From assembly GCA_965261105.1 (NCBI GenBank), contig CBDHCM010000006.1, positions 1,540,405 through 1,604,404 of the forward strand: a stretch of DNA of 64,000 nt. The letters run 5' to 3'. The first letter of the stretch is position 1. Every line of letters starts with the position of its first letter. Shown piece after piece: positions 6,062 to 28,396 of the stretch. The translations under genes were made by a program, and so were the position numbers. The notes under the pieces are model-generated. The model was not told where the DNA came from and did no database searches. It saw only the letters and a list, made by a program, of their open reading frames with translations. The DNA is from Candidatus Aldehydirespirator sp. GTDB taxonomy: Bacteria; Actinomycetota; Acidimicrobiia; Acidimicrobiales; Aldehydirespiratoraceae.

Positions 6062-9000
6062 GAGACGGCTCCTTGCGCGGAGACGCCGTTGTCGCCGTTC
6101 TCATCGATGAGAAGCAGGCCGGGGTCGATGCCCAGTGCGGCCCGCAGCTGGTCGCTGTCGAGGTCGCCCACCGAGGAGGACTTGGGCAGCACCATGTCGG
6201 CGATGCGGCGCTTGCCCGCCACCACCTCCTCGACCCGATCATCCACGGTGCCGGGGCACACCAGCCGGTGGCACACCACCGTGTTGCGCTGCCCGATGCG
6301 CCAGGCCCGGTCGCGGGCCTGGTCCTCGACCGCCGGGTTCCACCAGCGGTCGTAGAGCACCACGTGGTTGGCGGCGGTCAGGTTCAGGCCGGTGCCGCCC
6401 GCCTTGAGTGAGAGCACCAGAGCCCCGGGCCCCCGACCCTTCTGGAACGACTGCACCAGGCGGTCGCGGGCGCCCCGGGCCATCCCGCCGTGATAGCAGC
6501 TGATCGGCAGGCCGGTGCGCTCGGTCAGGTGCGTCGCCAGCCGCTCTCCCCATGTGGCGAAGTGGGTGAAGATCAGCATCCGCTCGGAGGCCGCGAACAC
6601 CTGGCCCATGATCTGCTCCAGCCGGGCCAGCTTGCCCGAGCGCCCGTCCAGGGGTTCGCCGTCGTCCTCGTAGTTGACCGGATGGTTGCAGATCTGCTTG
6701 AGGGCGGTGATGGCGGCCAGCACCGCCCCCTTGCGCTCGGGCCCGCCCTCGGCGGTGGTCTCGGTGCGGGCCACCAGCTCGTCGAGCACCGCCTGGTAAA
6801 GCCCGACCTGCTCAGCGGTCATCGTGCAGTGGTCGAGCTCGTCGATGCGGTCGGGCAGCTCCGCGGCGATGGCGGGCTCGGCCTTGGTCCGTCGGAACAC
6901 CAAGATGCCGTTGAGCGCGGCCAGGGCACCCTCGCCGGCTGCGGCCGCCTTGGGGGCCGCAGGTGCCTGCGGGGAGTTGGACGCCTCTGAGCCGTTGGAG
7001 CCCGCGGCGACCTCGCGGTCCGCCCCGGGCTTCTTGGACACCCTCGACATCTCCGCGATGAACGGGTTGCGGGCTCCCAGCAGGCCCGGGTTGCAGAAGT
7101 CCATGATGGCCCACAGGTCGCCCAGGCCGTTCTCGATCGGGGTGCCGGTCAGCGTGACCCGGCAGCGCGCATTGAGCCGGCGCAGCTGCTGGGCGGTCTC
7201 GCTGGCCGGGTTCTTGATGGCCTGGGCCTCGTCGAGCACCACCGTCGACCACTCGACCTTCTCCAGAACGTCCAGGTCGCGCATGGCGGTGCCGTAGGTG
7301 GAGACCACCAGGTCGGCCCTCTCCACCATGGCGGGCACCCGCTCCGCGGGCGTGCGGTTCGGGCCGTGGTGGACCACCACCCGCAGGCCGGGCACGAACC
7401 GGCGGGCCTCGCTGGCCCAGTTGCCCACCACCGCGGGCGGCGCGGCCACCAGCGACGGGCCGTTGCCGCGAGTGAGGTAGATGTGGGCCAGCATCGTGGG
7501 GGTCTTGCCCAGCCCCATGTCCAGGGCCAGGCAGCCGCCCAGGCCGGTCTGCTCCAGGAAGCTCAGCCACAGCAGCGCGTCGGCCTGGTATGTGCGCAGC
7601 GTCCCGTTGAAGCCGTCGGGCGTGACGGGGAGTTCCGCGGGGAGGCTGCGGGCGCTGCGGATCAGCTCCGCAGCCCAGCCCTCCCCCGCGACCATCGTGC
7701 CCCCGGACAGGGGCGAACCCTCCAGGCCGAGGGCATGGCGCAGCATGTCGGCGCCGGTCATGCGGGTCACGTCGGCTCGCTCGGCCAGCGCGGCCGCGGC
7801 CTCGTTGAGGTCGGCCCGGTCCAGCTCCACCCACCGTCCCCGGCTCTTCACCAGGGGCCGGGCCTGGGTGGCCAGCGCCCGGATCTCGGCCGCGGTCAGC
7901 TCCACGTCGTCGAAGGCGACCGACCAGCGCACGTCGGCCAGCTGGCGGGCTCCCACCAGGGTCTCCTGGGCCTCGACCGACGTGAGGCGCAGGGACGGTG
8001 AGGGCCGCCGGCGCGACAGTGCCGGCACCCGCACCTCGTAGCCCACGGCCTGCAGGACGTGGCCCGTCTCGGTCATCAGCTGCCACGCCTCGTCGGCGTC
8101 GAGGATCACCTCGCCCCGCCGGCGGCCCCCGAGCCGCACCAGCTCCGGGAAGAGCCGCTCCAGGCGGGTCATCTGGTGCTTCACCGCCTGGCGCCGGGCC
8201 CGCGACGCGATCACCAGGGCCCGCTCGACCGGTTGGAGCTCGCCCGAGCTCGCCTCCGACAGGACCGACAGGTGCCAGGCGCCGATGTCGTCGGGTGGAT
8301 CGAGCTGCACGATCAGCCGCAGCCGCGGGTCGTAGGGCTCCGTCACCGGGCGGGCCCACTGGTCGAGGCGGCGAGCCAGGTCGGAGGCGTGGCGGCTGGG
8401 CACGTCGAAGGGCGTGCCTTCCAGTCGGGCCAGGGCCGTCTCGGCCACGTCGGCGCGGGTGCGCGGCGCGGGCGGTGGCGCCGGTGCTTCGAGTCGCTCG
8501 GCCGCCTCGGTGGCGATGGCGTCGAATATGTCGGCCAGGGCCGCCTGGGTGAACGCGGGCGCGTCGCGCTGGTTCTCGAAGGCCGCGGCCGCGCCCGGCA
8601 GCGAGTCGGCCAGTGCAGCGACGATGTCGGACTCCACCAGCGCCGGGGCCCAGCGCACCGCGTAGGAGGCGCTGTCGGCTCGTTCCGCGGCGGCTGAGGC
8701 CGCGCCGTCGGCGCCGTCGGCCTCGTCGTCGGGGCGGTACCGGCGGCGCACCTTCTTGAGCTGGGGCACCATGCGCCCCTGGGCGGCGAGCCGAACCGCC
8801 AGTGCGGCCACCAGACCCAGCCACGACACGCTCGCCCCGATTCCATCCTCCTCGGCTGCCTCGCCCAGCGCCACGAGCCACCCGAGGCAGCTCTCGATCG
8901 GTGCCGAGACGGCCTCGGCCCTGGCCCCGCCGCCGAGCGCCACCGGGCGGTGCTCGCTCCACTCGACGGTGCCGGCGCCCGCGCCCCGCAGCCGCTTCAG

Positions 9001-20374: not shown

Positions 20375-20779
20375 ATGAAGAGACTGCATACTGGGGGCAT
20401 GGAGCCCCGCGTATGGGTCAACCCCGGTCAGCCGCAGACGCTGTACATCGCCCATATGCTGATGTACTTCCGGGGCGGCATATCGCTAGTGTTCGGCCTC
20501 CTGTTCGTACCGTCCTTCACCGTGTCCTCGCTGCTGTTCGCGGTGGGCAACGTGGTGGCCGCGTTCGGCATCGCCAACGAGAGGCGATGGGGCTACAAGC
20601 TCGGCGTTGCCGTGGCATCGCTTACCCTGGTCATCGCGCTGCTCCTGCTGGTTCGCAGCTTCGGCCGGCTGTGGGGCGACCTGATCGGCCTGTTGTTCGA
20701 CGTCGCATTGGTTGCGCTGCTGCTGCACCCCATCAGCCGCAGTTACCAGCGATCCTGGCCCAAGAAGCAGCGCAGGTGA
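20375..20779 (+). CDS. Small integral membrane protein, unknown function
   Basis: MKRLHTGGMEPRVWVNPGQPQTLYIAHMLMYFRGGISLVFGLLFVPSF... has 3-4 hydrophobic helices. An alternative start is ATG 20399. Confidence 0.55.
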   Translation: MKRLHTGGMEPRVWVNPGQPQTLYIAHMLMYFRGGISLVFGLLFVPSFTVSSLLFAVGNVVAAFGIANERRWGYKLGVAVASLTLVIALLLLVRSFGRLWGDLIGLLFDVALVALLLHPISRSYQRSWPKKQRR

Positions 20780-21557: not shown

Positions 21558-21603
21558 GGGCGGACCGGCCCGACTGCCCCCGGCGGACCGGCCCGACTGC
21601 CCC
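21558..21603. repeat. 23-bp tandem duplication just downstream of menG
   Basis: GGCGGACCGGCCCGACTGCCCCC occurs at 21558-21580 and again at 21581-21603. Confidence 0.85.
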
Positions 21604-21697
21604 CGGCGTGCGGGCCAGCGCTCCAAGGCCGGCCATGCGGATGCGTTGGCACTGCGACCGACCACTACGAGCGAAAGGACAATAACTCGATAGAGCA

Positions 21698-21726
21698 TTG
21701 GGAGTTGTCCGGAAGGTCACTACAAT
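21698..21726 (+). promoter_or_regulatory. Candidate sigma-A type promoter for the redoxin gene
   Basis: TTGGGA (21698-21703), a 17-nt spacer, then TACAAT (21721-21726). It lies in a locally AT-richer stretch ~23 nt upstream of ATG 21749. Confidence 0.35.
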
Positions 21727-21748
21727 CTATGCACCTGTGACAGATTCA

Positions 21749-22348
21749 ATGCGGTGGTATCTGCTGGCGGCGGTCGTTGTGATCGTTGCCGTCGCCTGTG
21801 GCGGCGACGGCGCGGGCCAGATGGACATCAACAGCGTGTTGGAGGACTCCCCCGGCGAGCGCGGGCACGACCATGCCTCCCAAGACGTCGCCCCCCGCAG
21901 CGGCGATGGCTTGGACATGAGCCTCATCAACACCACCGGAGACGTTCCCGGCATCGACATGATCGACGTTTCCACCGGTGCCACCGTCAACCTCCGATCA
22001 CTGGTCGACAACACGAAGCCGCTGCTGTTCTGGTTCTGGGTCCCGCATTGACCGATGTGTCGGAGCGAGGCTCCGATCGTCGAGCAGTTCGCTCGCGACA
22101 GCACCGACCGTCTCACCGTCGTCGGCATCGGCGGCCAGGACGACCTGGCTCAGGCCAGGGATTTCGTCGACTCGACCGGAACGACGTTCACAATGCTCTG
22201 GAGCGACTCCTCCGAGGTGTGGCGCTACTTCGCGGTGCAGAGCAACTCCGCGGTCTGGCTGGTCGACAAGGACGGCAACCGCATCGACAGCAGCTCGACC
22301 CCGTTCGACGATTCCCACATAGAGGCCCACATCGCCAAGCTGAGCTGA
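21749..22348 (+). CDS. TlpA/ResA-like thioredoxin-fold lipoprotein with in-frame TGA (22049-22051) at the first Cys of CxxC; candidate selenoprotein (UxxC) or a pseudogene
   Basis: Track ORFs 21698..22051 and 22055..22348 are in the same frame, separated only by TGA-CCG. The joined sequence LLFWFWVPH-U-PMCRSEAP aligns position for position with the redoxin motif FWASWCGPCRAEAP. Lipobox MRWYLLAAVVVIVAVAC. Confidence 0.6.
22053..22079 (+). promoter_or_regulatory. SECIS-like stem-loop immediately 3' of the in-frame TGA
   Basis: CGAT-GTGT-CGGAGC-GAG-GCTCCG-ATCG folds as a 4-bp lower stem, a 4-nt bulge, a 6-bp perfect upper stem and a GAG loop. The loop starts 16 nt after the TGA. Confidence 0.45.
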
Positions 22349-22381: not shown

Positions 22382-23908
22382 CTAATTGGGACTGAACCAG
22401 TCGCCCTCGGCGCGCATGCAGCCCCATTCGTCCAGCACGCAGTCGGGGTCGGCTCGCAGAACCCGGAAGCGATCTGAGCCGTCGCGGTCGTCGGGGTCGA
22501 AGCTGATGCGCGACCCGTGGGCGGTCTCGTAGTCGGACAGGGCGAGGGCGCTGATCAGCGCCTCGCGTGTCAGTGGCCCGGCGACGCGGGTCATGGCTGC
22601 GAAGACCAAGTCCAAGGAGTCGCAGGTGCCAGTGATCAGGTTCCAGGCGTCGGTGTGGGTCCGGTGCGAGAAGGGAGCCGCGTCGGCAGACGTGTTGCGG
22701 AGGCTGACACAGGCTCGGTCCGAGGCCGCAACGGGGTCACCGGCCGCCCGCCTCGAGCTGATCTGCACGAGCCTGCGGACTTGCTCCTCGGGCGCCCCCG
22801 TGAGAGTAAGCACGGCGGGCTGCGAATCATTGATTACCCAATGGGGGAACCATTCGAGCCGGTCGGCGGCTCTCATCAGACGGCGCACATCGGCCGAAGT
22901 GGCCGACGACACCACAGTGGTAACGCCGGCGCCGCGGAAGTGCTCGACGGTGTCGAGGAAGTACTTCTCCATCTGGCGCAGCACCTCGGCCTTCTCCGGT
23001 GACAACCGCGAGAGTCTCCGCACCGCCGCTTCCGTCTCGGAATCGGTGAGGCCGCTCTCCAGCAATCGGACCTGGCGCTCCGCCACCGACACTCCCACCG
23101 TCCCGAACTCGCTGGGAACCCTGGCCACAGAGATCAACTCGAGATCGAGGCGCTCCACGGCCGCTGCGGCGCTCTCGACCTGCGCCGCTCCGCCGGCGCC
23201 GTCGGTCGCGAGGAGTCCTATGCGGTCATCGCCGGTCAGCACGTCAGCGCGGGCGGCAACGTCGAGACTGGTCGACAGCAGGTACTCGACCGAGCCGTCG
23301 TTGAGGAAGAGCCTTCCCTCGGAGCGCTCCAGCGACGAGGTGGACAGGGACGTGAATACCCCCACGGTGGGGATCTGCGCCTCGAGAGTGGCACATCTCA
23401 GCGTCGTGTCGTTCATCCGCAGACTCAGCAGCAGCAGCGGCCGCCGTTCGGGCAGATCGGTGCAGATCTTGCGGAAGGACGCTTCGGCATCCGACAGGTT
23501 CCAGGCGTAGGCCACCGGCTCAAAGCAGTTCCCGTTGATCCCGCCCTGGGCGTTCACCTCGTTGATGTATGCCTCGACGATCAGGGAGGGTCCGTCGAGG
23601 ACCATCGTCTCCAAGCCGACGGCGGCCAACTCGTCCTGGTCGGGACTGGTCCAGGCAATCGTGACCGCATCCGACGCCTGCGGGCTGTCCGCTTCGGGGC
23701 ACGCCGGCCCCGGTCGCGGCGCTCCGCCGGCTGCCGAGATTCCCATCGCCGTGCGCGTTGATCCGAAACCGGCGACCTGCGGGCTGTCGTCCTCGGGGAA
23801 GACCGAGTGGTCGGTCAGGTCGGGCCGGGCGGCGCCTCCGCCGCAGGCACCAGCCAACAGGCACAGCAGGGCGAGCGCGAGCAGGGCGCGCGGGCGGCTC
23901 CTCACCAC
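22382..23908 (-). CDS. Secreted Cys-rich lipoprotein, possibly periplasmic-binding-protein-like
   Basis: The start is taken at GTG 23908 (VVRSRPRALLALALLCLLAGAC, signal peptide plus lipobox). The mature part has about 8 Cys. The fold assignment is a guess. Confidence 0.5.
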   Translation of the reverse strand: MVRSRPRALLALALLCLLAGACGGGAARPDLTDHSVFPEDDSPQVAGFGSTRTAMGISAAGGAPRPGPACPEADSPQASDAVTIAWTSPDQDELAAVGLETMVLDGPSLIVEAYINEVNAQGGINGNCFEPVAYAWNLSDAEASFRKICTDLPERRPLLLLSLRMNDTTLRCATLEAQIPTVGVFTSLSTSSLERSEGRLFLNDGSVEYLLSTSLDVAARADVLTGDDRIGLLATDGAGGAAQVESAAAAVERLDLELISVARVPSEFGTVGVSVAERQVRLLESGLTDSETEAAVRRLSRLSPEKAEVLRQMEKYFLDTVEHFRGAGVTTVVSSATSADVRRLMRAADRLEWFPHWVINDSQPAVLTLTGAPEEQVRRLVQISSRRAAGDPVAASDRACVSLRNTSADAAPFSHRTHTDAWNLITGTCDSLDLVFAAMTRVAGPLTREALISALALSDYETAHGSRISFDPDDRDGSDRFRVLRADPDCVLDEWGCMRAEGDWFSPN

Positions 23909-24152
23909 CAGAGTCCAATGCGTCCGAGGCGGGGGTGACGATGGGGTCGGGCCATGTGCCGCAAAGCCAAACGGGAGTCCTTCAGGTGCAGCGATGCACT
24001 GTGGGCGTGCATCCGCCAGCAACGATAACCGAAGTCGCAGCCCAGGCCGAAGCGGGCGCAAGAGTAGTGAGATCCCCGGCGAGGCGGCGCACCTCGCCTG
24101 TCACGGTGGGCAGCAAGGCTTCCGCGGCGCCCCCCGACCGTGGCGGTGACGA

Positions 24153-26371: not shown

Positions 26372-28396
26372 GTGAACCGGCTCGGCGGTGAGACCAGCCC
26401 CTACCTGCGCCAGCATCGCGACAACCCGGCGGACTGGTACCCGTGGGGCTCCGAGGCCTTCGCGGCGGCGGCCGAGCGGGACCGTCCGGTGCTGCTGTCG
26501 GTCGGCTACTCGAGCTGCCACTGGTGTCATGTGATGGCCCACGAGTCCTTCGAGGATCCCGACACTGCGGCCATCATGAACCGGCTGTTCGTCAACGTGA
26601 AGGTGGACCGCGAGGAGCGCCCCGACGTGGACGCCATCTACATGGACTCGGTGCAGGCCATGACCGGCCGGGGCGGCTGGCCCATGACCGTGTTCCTCAC
26701 CCCCGACGGCCGGCCCTTCTTCGGCGGCACCTACTACCCGGACCGGCCCCGGGGTGGCATGGCCTCGTTCCGCCAGGTGATGGCGGCCATCGACGAGGCC
26801 TGGACCAACCGCCGAGCCGACGTGCAGGCCCAGGCCGACCAGCTGGTAACGCTGATCGATCGGACGTCGCGTGCCGCCGCGTCGCTCAGCGCGGAGGCTG
26901 CAGCCGACTCCGTGGCCGACGGCCGGGCTCTGGACCAGGCCGGCGACGCCATCCTCGCCTCCTTCGACCCCCAGTGGGGAGGCTTCGGTGGCGCCCCCAA
27001 GTTCCCCGCGGCCATGACGCTGGCCTCGACGCTGCGCATCCACCACCGCAGCAACCGCCCCGAGCTGCTGCGGGCGGTGCGGACCAGCCTCGACGCCATG
27101 GCCTCCGGCGGCATCTACGACCATCTCGGGGGCGGGTTCGCCCGCTACTCGGTGGACCATCAGTGGCTGGTGCCCCACTTCGAGAAGATGCTGTACGACA
27201 ACGCCCTGCTGACCCGGGCCTACCTGCATGCATGGATGGTGACCGGCGAGGCTGCCTACCGGCAGGTGGTGGACGAGACCATCGGCTATGTGCTGCGGGA
27301 CCTGCGCCACTCCGACGGCGGCTTCTACTCGGCCGAAGATGCCGACTCCGAGGGCGTCGAGGGCAAGTTCTACGTGTGGTCCGAGCCGGAGCTGCGAGCC
27401 GTCGTGCGGGCCGCTGCGGGTGACGAGGCCGTCGACGCGGCCGTGGCCTGGTGGGGGGTGACCGCGGCCGGGAACTTCGAGGGGGCCAACATCTTGAACC
27501 GGCCGGTGCGGGGCGACCTGCTGCGGCCAGACACGGTTGAGGCCGCCCGCCAGGCGCTGTTCATCTGCCGGGAGAGCCGGGTGCGGCCCGGCCTCGACGA
27601 CAAGGTCCTCACGGAGTGGAACGGCCTGATGCTGGCCGCGCTGGTTGAGGCCGCGGCCGCCACCGGCGACCCCGAGTGGCGGGCCGCCGCGCTGGCCAAC
27701 GGCGAGTTCCTGGTGGGCAACCTGCGGCGCGGCGACGGGCGCTGGCTGCGCTCCTGGCAGGCGGGCGACTCCGACCGGCCCGCCCAGGCCCGCCACCTGG
27801 CCTACGCCCACGACTACGCGGCCATCATCGATGCCTTCACGAGGTTGGGCGAGCTCTCGGGCCAGGCCCGCTGGATCGACGAGGCCCGGGCCGCGGCCGA
27901 CGGCCTGCTGGAGCTGTTCTGGGACGACGAGTCGGGCGGCGTGTTCACCACCGGCTCCGACGCCGAGAAGCTCGTGACCCGGCCCAAGGACCTCATGGAC
28001 AACGCCACCCCGTCGGCCCAGTCGCTGGCCGCCTGCGGGCTGCTCCGGCTGGCCGCGCTCACCGGCGCGGTCCGCTACGACGAGCACGGCCGCCGCATCG
28101 CCGCCCTGTTCAGCCCCGCGGCGGCCCAGCATCCCACCGCCTTCGGTCGGGCGCTGGAGGCCGTAGACATGGCTGCTCACGGCCTCGACGAGATCGCGGT
28201 GGTCGGCGACCGGGCCGACCTGGTAGCCGCAGTGCAGACCCGCTACCTGCCCGGTGCGGTCCTGGCCTGGGGCGAGCCCTACGACTCCCCGCTGTGGGCG
28301 GGCCGGGCCGAGGGCCTCGCCTACGTCTGCCGCGACTTCGCCTGCCAGTCCCCCACCGCCACCGCCGAGGACCTAGTCGCCCAGCTCGAAGCCTGA
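26372..28396 (+). CDS. Thioredoxin-domain protein of the DUF255/YyaL family
   Basis: [60 protein letters not shown] is the hallmark N-terminus. A long alpha/alpha-toroid-like C-terminal part follows. Confidence 0.85.

Follow-up and report, generated by a model that had tools for sequence, protein, structure and literature searches.

A conserved in-frame UGA at the active site of a DsbE/DsbF-like redoxin of Acidimicrobiia is very probably read as selenocysteine

The DNA analysed here, hereafter the window, is a stretch of 64,000 nucleotides from a Candidatus Aldehydirespirator sp. of the Acidimicrobiia (contig CBDHCM010000006.1, positions 1,540,405 to 1,604,404 of the forward strand; assembly GCA_965261105.1) that carries, between ubiE/menG and a convergent gene for a solute-binding-like lipoprotein, a redoxin gene interrupted by an in-frame TGA. 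Two open reading frames (ORFs) of the forward strand, 21698..22051 and 22055..22348, share one frame and are separated only by the TGA at 22049-22051 and a CCG; read across the stop, they yield LLFWFWVPH-[TGA]-PMCRSEAP, the TGA falling on the first cysteine of a CxxC motif. The complete gene would occupy positions 21749..22348 (+ strand), comprising 199 codons including one for selenocysteine (Sec) and closing with a normal TGA terminator (22346-22348). From comparative sequence analysis, we propose that the UGA at 22049 very probably encodes Sec in an exported thiol-disulfide oxidoreductase of the DsbE/DsbF (TlpA-like) type with the active-site motif H-U-P-M-C. Sec would take the nucleophilic first position of U-P-M-C (22049..22051, +), and the predicted resolving Cys of this UxxC is encoded by the TGT at 22058..22060 (+), a position occupied by Cys in 119 out of 119 aligned copies.

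Domain and homology tests were performed on the 199-amino acid product translated from the ATG at 21749, with Cys written at the position of the stop (residue 101). A single Pfam domain, Redoxin (PF08534), covered residues 75-179 and spanned the stop, scoring 37.7 bits against a cutoff of 26.6; the joined product further matched PF00578 (AhpC-TSA; 36.0 vs 26) and PF13905 (29.7 vs 27). The best matches among solved structures were two proteins of Mycobacterium tuberculosis, DsbF (Rv1677, 3IOS; E = 1.4e-15) and DsbE/MPT53 (Rv2878c, 1LU4; E = 1.6e-11). DsbF aligned as KPAVLWFWAPWCPTCQGEAPVV with KPLLFWFWVPH-U-PMCRSEAPIV of the window protein, placing U on the first Cys of CPTC, and U-P-M-C also aligned with CPFC of MPT53. 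A sequence-only reading of this DNA had located the TGA at the first Cys of the CxxC motif of a TlpA-like redoxin, and both the domain match and the DsbF alignment bear this out. The window protein has in common with DsbF and DsbE the thioredoxin fold of extracytoplasmic actinobacterial proteins and the active-site context (L)WFWAPxCPxC…EAP, but differs from them in the Sec predicted in place of the first Cys and in the His, rather than Trp, that precedes it (PH-U vs PW-C), and the match is limited to query residues 35-122. Scores against the equivalog models stayed below their cutoffs (TIGR00385 for dsbE, 33.2 bits vs 123.15; ResA, 29.3 vs 170; TlpA, 16.4 vs 230), and we accordingly assign the protein to the superfamily only and not to the DsbE, ResA or TlpA equivalogs.

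Conservation of the in-frame TGA was examined in one scan of GTDB species genomes, which returned 146 related stretches, and 80 loci were retained from these; together with loci from ENA, the DNA set amounted to 83 loci, and gene copies were counted across 78 groups of related Acidimicrobiia loci. Nearly all of the kept loci belong to metagenome-assembled genomes (MAGs) of Acidimicrobiia, many of them bearing names associated with symbionts of sponges (Ca. Aldehydirespirator, Ca. Poriferisocius, Spongiisociaceae). In the loci of the genome scan, those taken earlier from ENA and the window together, the codon at the site is TGA in 141 copies and TGT in one, a recurrence that greatly exceeds chance. 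Most loci hold tandem pairs of the gene and some hold three or four copies within 20 kb. The TGA copies originate from independent short-read and long-read assemblies and extend down to 44% protein identity. The window itself shares 93-94% of its nucleotides with two chromosomes of Ca. Aldehydirespirator (OZ252146.1 and OZ244866.1). A protein search gave a matching picture, with 11 of 12 relatives stopping exactly at FWFWxP[HLYW], the same place as the window stop, and in two syntenic ENA contigs the TGA is followed by a conserved in-frame C-terminal half.

The sequence beyond the TGA behaves as coding sequence. In 120 copies, 95-107 open codons follow the internal TGA before a true terminator is reached; this terminator is TGA in 79 copies, TAG in 25 and TAA in 16; since the same genes terminate on TGA in 79 of the 120 copies, TGA still means stop in these organisms. 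The ratio of nonsynonymous to synonymous substitution rates (dN/dS) downstream of the TGA is 0.22-0.74, close to the upstream value. Orthologues do not keep the ATG found just past the window's stop but have codons such as ATA, AAG, ACC or GTC at its place, and separate initiation of the downstream piece is thus excluded.

Pairing of Sec-containing with Cys-containing homologues is the basis of reviewed methods of selenoprotein gene prediction (PMC13188914). An exhaustive phmmer search of 1.84 billion representative proteins, with the C-terminal half as query, gave just 217 matches at E <= 1e-3, and these fell into two groups. The first consists of short fragments starting at MCR… or at an internal Met, which correspond to C-terminal pieces of split genes, and the second of full-length proteins, 170-273 residues long, with the motif WFWAPH-C-PxC. 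The full-length Cys forms, among them P0134-P0136, P0139 and P0141, show 40-52% identity; the Cys codon at the site is TGC in loci L087-L089 and TGT in L029. The sequence-only reading had asked whether homologues carry Cys or TGA at this position, and the answer is 141 TGA to one TGT in the genome scan, with Cys in more distant full-length relatives.

Two hairpins follow the UGA. The first, H1 (22053..22079, +), is built of a lower stem CGAU/AUCG, a GUGU bulge, an upper stem CGGAGC/GCUCCG and a GAG loop, and has a folding energy of -12.4 kcal/mol (z = -2.6 vs dinucleotide shuffles). This stem-loop had been described from the sequence alone, and it exists as described except that 15 nt, not 16, separate its loop from the UGA. 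H1 can be drawn in nearly all copies with a register that shifts by clade (pair sum i+j = 64 vs 68); pairing in any single register involves 58-68% of cells, the loop sequence varies, and the helix is made of rare codons, AGC/AGA paired with GCT. As a candidate for a single conserved structure it was rejected, no register exceeding 58-68% pairing and RNAalifold having dropped it. The second hairpin, H2 (22080..22096, +), has the stem CGAGC/GCUCG (22081-22085 with 22091-22095) and the loop AGUUC (22086-22090), and encodes V-E-Q-F-A-R. Its position and sequence are fixed, with 96.5% of cells paired and an essentially invariant GAGC/GCUC core; the pair at columns 45-59 shows a compensatory switch, being C-G in 85 copies, U-A in 21 and broken in one, and H2 is the only helix that RNAalifold keeps.

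The published model of the bacterial selenocysteine insertion sequence (SECIS) specifies a loop of 3-9 nt with G in the first two loop positions, an upper stem of 4-16 bp, a spacing of 16-37 nt and an energy <= -7.5 kcal/mol (PMC13188914). H2 agrees with this model on all four counts, having a loop of 5 nt with G at loop position 2 followed by U, a stem of 5-7 bp, a spacing of 34 nt from UGA to loop and an energy of -9.2 kcal/mol. When compared with the bSECISearch model and its E. coli fdhF prototype, it is likewise inside the limits for loop, G-U, stem, spacing and energy. It departs from the bacterial SECIS consensus in that a separate hairpin, H1, stands between it and the UGA, in that its loop comes close to the maximum spacing, and in that the RNA element also codes for a conserved peptide, EQFA, and is held constant by the choice of codons. 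H1, with 15 nt from UGA to loop and a GAG loop, is borderline for the model. Because H1 is borderline in spacing and loop and shifts register, and because H2 is invariant and within the model, H2 was taken as the core; it most likely represents the SelB-binding SECIS core, with H1 acting as a variable helper helix rather than as the core itself. The expectation from the sequence-only reading of a SECIS-like structure downstream of the TGA was in this sense correct, a structure being present and under selection at the RNA level, but the reading had fixed on H1, whose register shifts, and had missed the invariant element.

That selection acts on the hairpins at the level of the RNA, and that it is confined to the TGA forms, is apparent from codon usage and folding. 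GCT encodes the Ala of H2 in 118 of 119 aligned copies and in 118 of the 118 Sec forms, against a GCT background of 11% elsewhere in the family, and the preceding GAG and CAG codons are equally constant (110/111 and 116/116, respectively). All four of the Cys forms examined have GCC at this position. Three of them (L087, L088 and L089) retain the peptide (L/V)EQFA with the GCC codon, which breaks H2, and the fourth (L029) is without H2. We further compared, in non-redundant copies, the folding of the 60 nt after the UGA with that of 300 synonymous recodings. Each of the 36 TGA copies folded better than the mean of its recodings, whereas the lone Cys copy gave z = +1.58; the mean z was -1.69 with the Cys copy included, and 22 copies fell below -1.64.

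Two further observations concern the same region. The L029 gene (L029:10109; JAPPJC010000027.1, RHO2_bin_38) is the sole TGT copy of the genome scan, and the loss of H2 accompanies its Cys codon. The codon before the Sec-UGA (window 22046-22048; alignment columns 10-12) is the His codon CAT in 112 copies and never CAC, although the family otherwise uses CAT for only 15% of its His residues; at the bases flanking the UGA, T precedes in 124 of 141 copies and C follows in 108 of 141. This flanking bias looks like a constraint of the recoding context.

Selenoproteins of this general kind have been described before. UxxC proteins of the TlpA-like or thiol-disulfide isomerase-like class (cd02966) have been predicted since 2005, when they were found in Sargasso Sea sequences (PMC1088965, Tables 1 and 3), and again in later surveys (PMC13188914, Table 1), so that the kind was already known. 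Like the window family, they combine a thioredoxin fold, UxxC, Sec/Cys pairs and a downstream stem-loop, a likeness at the level of description; set beside them, the window family is confined to Acidimicrobiia in the loci examined, is multi-copy and is almost entirely of the Sec type. With the thioredoxin-like selenoprotein that bears the HUIPC motif (NF047660; PMC13188914, Table 1), the window protein shares the His before Sec, UxxC and a thioredoxin-like fold, but its motif is H-U-P-x-C and not H-U-I-P-C. None of the selenoprotein-specific NCBIfam models, NF047660 included, matched at E <= 0.01. On present sequence evidence, the window gene would add to a known selenoprotein class, with M. 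tuberculosis DsbE and DsbF, which contain Cys, as its nearest characterised relatives.

What can be said of the Sec machinery in these organisms, whose presence we infer, is partial and mixed. SelA and SelB co-occur in most sponge-symbiont bins and were reported as enriched there (Slaby et al. 2017, PMC5649159). According to a 2026 preprint, all 84 complete genomes of Actinomarina, which also belongs to the Acidimicrobiia, have selA, selC and selD together with a divergent selB that scores below threshold. Sec use is thus probably not rare in Acidimicrobiia, which amends the sequence-only reading, where Sec-containing thioredoxin-like families were called uncommon in high-GC Actinobacteria. 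The paper that names the Aldehydirespiratoraceae (PMC11706023) contains no selenium-related term in its text.

Several results weigh against Sec as the residue inserted at 22049. ARAGORN found no tRNA-Sec in the window and 83 flanking loci (1.6 Mb), and tblastn with E. coli SelA, SelB and SelD queries found none of the three in the window and the 1.6 Mb of flanks; the only matches to the Sec-machinery queries, in L006 and L007, were to the GTPase TypA/BipA and were discarded. The absence of Sec genes near the redoxin says little, however, because the search covered ±10 kb around each copy. The 34 nt that separate H2 from the UGA are also more than the distance in the E. coli fdhF element. Rfam gave no match in the window at the gathering threshold, and a permissive Rfam scan of 21950-22200 gave no SECIS family, with Guanidine-II and snoRNA matches at chance level; the Actinomarina preprint remarks that bacterial SECIS elements are poorly represented in Rfam. 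Finally, sponge bin134, from which locus L063 with its two TGA copies derives, was scored with one SelD and with neither SelA nor SelB (Slaby et al. 2017, Table S4, PMC5649159). This bin is about 90% complete (ibid.), and its SelA and SelB may either lie in the missing 10% or so or be too divergent for COG assignment.

The lack of Sec genes around the gene copies and the bin134 score speak for a rival reading, in which the UGA is decoded as another amino acid, either by context-dependent read-through or suppression (for instance as Trp or Cys, inserted by a near-cognate or suppressor tRNA) or through a codon that is partly reassigned, and in which the hairpins would do no more than stimulate read-through. 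A UGA-to-Trp reassignment has recently been reported for the actinobacterial Eggerthellaceae (PMC13462651). We nevertheless consider such decoding improbable. The terminal TGA codons of 79 of the 120 copies speak against any global reassignment; the internal UGA is placed exactly at the catalytic Cys, for which Cys is the only alternative in relatives; and both in its G-U apical loop and in its spacing the hairpin conforms to a bacterial SECIS. In addition, bin134 encodes SelD, and selenouridine use is given as absent from sequenced Actinobacteria in the Actinomarina preprint, which cites Peng et al. 2016 on this point.

The remaining explanations deny that the UGA is decoded at all. If the TGA were a true stop, the locus would encode a lipoprotein fragment of ~100 amino acids and a separate protein of ~97 amino acids starting at the ATG at 22055, the division made both by ORF callers and in public annotations, and in the window an ATG does lie 3 nt past the stop. 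The two pieces, however, together make up a single thioredoxin fold, orthologues lack the ATG, public callers place the start of the downstream piece at varying internal codons, frame and spacing are kept in 141 copies, and the Cys forms are single full-length proteins; we give the two-gene reading very little chance. Still harder to credit is an error of sequencing, or a nonsense mutation that recently struck an ordinary CxxC redoxin gene now decaying as a pseudogene. TGA differs from TGC or TGT by one base, and decayed or mis-assembled copies do exist, as L084 illustrates, but the TGA recurs in 141 copies from independent assemblies, the downstream part is under purifying selection, and the synonymous constraint is specific to the TGA forms. 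The conserved TGA, the open frame, the dN/dS values and the non-conserved ATG thus led us to exclude sequencing error, pseudogene and two separate genes as explanations.

The L084 copy just mentioned (P0004; L084:24-572, ENA ERZ25039586 contig_81668) has CGA in place of TGA; its H2 is intact but its C-terminus is scrambled. This copy was considered, and rejected, as a functional read-through form with Arg; it appears to be either a decayed or decaying copy or a long-read assembly error. One family member, on the 2.8-kb contig L074 (NZ_CADEGK010000334.1), is labelled 'uncultured Phenylobacterium sp.' and matches the Acidimicrobiales contig L075; the Phenylobacterium label is probably a matter of binning contamination.

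With UGA 22049 read as Sec, the following course of events may be envisaged. During translation, SelB·GTP·Sec-tRNA(Sec) would recode the UGA, SelB being recruited by mRNA structure just downstream of it, most likely H2 as the core with H1 as a variable helper. The full-length prolipoprotein would then be exported, lipidated at Cys17 and placed on the outward-facing side of the membrane, where a selenenylsulfide/selenol-thiol pair could exchange with substrate cysteines, those of the adjacent solute-binding-like lipoprotein being the most likely. The redoxin would most likely be an extracytoplasmic thiol-disulfide oxidoreductase (oxidase, isomerase or reductase) acting on this partner. M. tuberculosis DsbE and DsbF have been reported to act as oxidases, and DsbF is likewise a lipoprotein.

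Export and lipidation are predicted from the N-terminal sequence. A putative signal peptide with a lipobox Cys, MRWYLLAAVVVIVAVA-C17-GGDG, is encoded at 21749..21799 (+); the hydrophobic leader ends …VAVA-C-GGDG, with Ala and not Leu at position -3. Orthologue leaders have the same [AGS]-C-GG layout (…TASCGGD, …AASCGGD, …AAGCGGG, …LAACGGDG), and the lipoprotein prediction of the sequence-only reading fits the conserved hydrophobic leader and [AGS]-C-G-G of the family. Upstream of the gene, a promoter-like site, TTGGGA-17-TACAAT, lies in an AT-rich patch at 21698..21726 (+; one found vs 0.0 expected from shuffles, a consensus match only). This site favours the ATG at 21749 over the TTG at 21698 as the start codon.

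The partner gene is convergent to the redoxin gene (22382..24061, - strand), with a probable start at GTG 23908 and an ORF open to 24061, and encodes a Cys-rich, solute-binding-like lipoprotein that scores 30.5 bits on Peripla_BP_6, slightly under the cutoff of 31.7. A link between the redoxin and the Cys-rich lipoprotein at 22382-23908 had been suggested from their convergence in the window, and the association turned out to be stronger than first claimed: the partner adjoins the redoxin in each of the 11 loci that form the orthologue group of the window (L001-L009, L032 and L086), on either strand and in otherwise differing surroundings. Seven Cys residues are invariant among the nine partner orthologues aligned. 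The partner lipoprotein is our candidate, and the most likely one, for the client of the redoxin.

At least 141 copies of this gene are present in public Acidimicrobiia MAGs, chromosome-level genomes of sponge symbionts among them, where they have been called as two fragments or as pseudogenes. Sec is almost exclusive (141 to 1 in the genome scan) in this exported DsbE/DsbF-type oxidoreductase, of which there are several copies per genome. This agrees with the enrichment of Sec machinery that has been reported for sponge symbionts, and the family would supply such machinery with a definite client. The SECIS signature, unusually clean and dependent on a single codon choice, is accompanied by a conserved pairing with a Cys-rich lipoprotein gene; that one synonymous choice, GCT or GCC for Ala, tracks Sec or Cys amounts to a natural experiment which marks the likeliest SECIS core. 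A broader and decidedly tentative proposal, which we hold to be unlikely, is that these Acidimicrobiia use a clade-specific mode of Sec decoding, in which a two-helix SECIS (its protein-binding GAGC-AGUUC-GCUC core 34 nt past the UGA) works with a SelB, and possibly also a SelA, of divergent sequence; it would serve at least 2-4 exported selenoenzymes per genome, each dedicated to the folding of particular disulfide-rich envelope proteins, the neighbouring solute-binding lipoprotein being one example. Divergent SelB and SelA, if real, would explain both the unannotated SelA and SelB of bin134 and the sub-threshold selB of Actinomarina.

Other features of the window and of related loci were recorded alongside. 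In a scan of the window, 22049 was the only in-frame TGA with coding signal on both sides; position 20777, which was considered as a second gene with an in-frame TGA, is merely the boundary of two same-frame genes. The same TGA scan over the related loci returned more paralogues of the redoxin family and nothing else convincing as a selenoprotein gene. Two paralogues (P0011 and P0012; L085:6700-7548 and 8001-8825 with their downstream halves) have N-terminal SLH domains, no lipoprotein leader and the same in-frame TGA, and in L014 (minus strand, 10918) some 600 open codons precede the TGA; the Sec-redoxin module is thus joined to different envelope anchors. In the window, a perfect 23-bp tandem direct repeat, GGCGGACCGGCCCGACTGCCCCC, is present in 2.2 copies at 21559-21608, between ubiE/menG and the redoxin gene. 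A second thiol-redox gene lies 4 kb downstream (26372-28396, +), encoding a DUF255/Thioredox_DsbH protein of 674 amino acids whose synteny is kept in L001.

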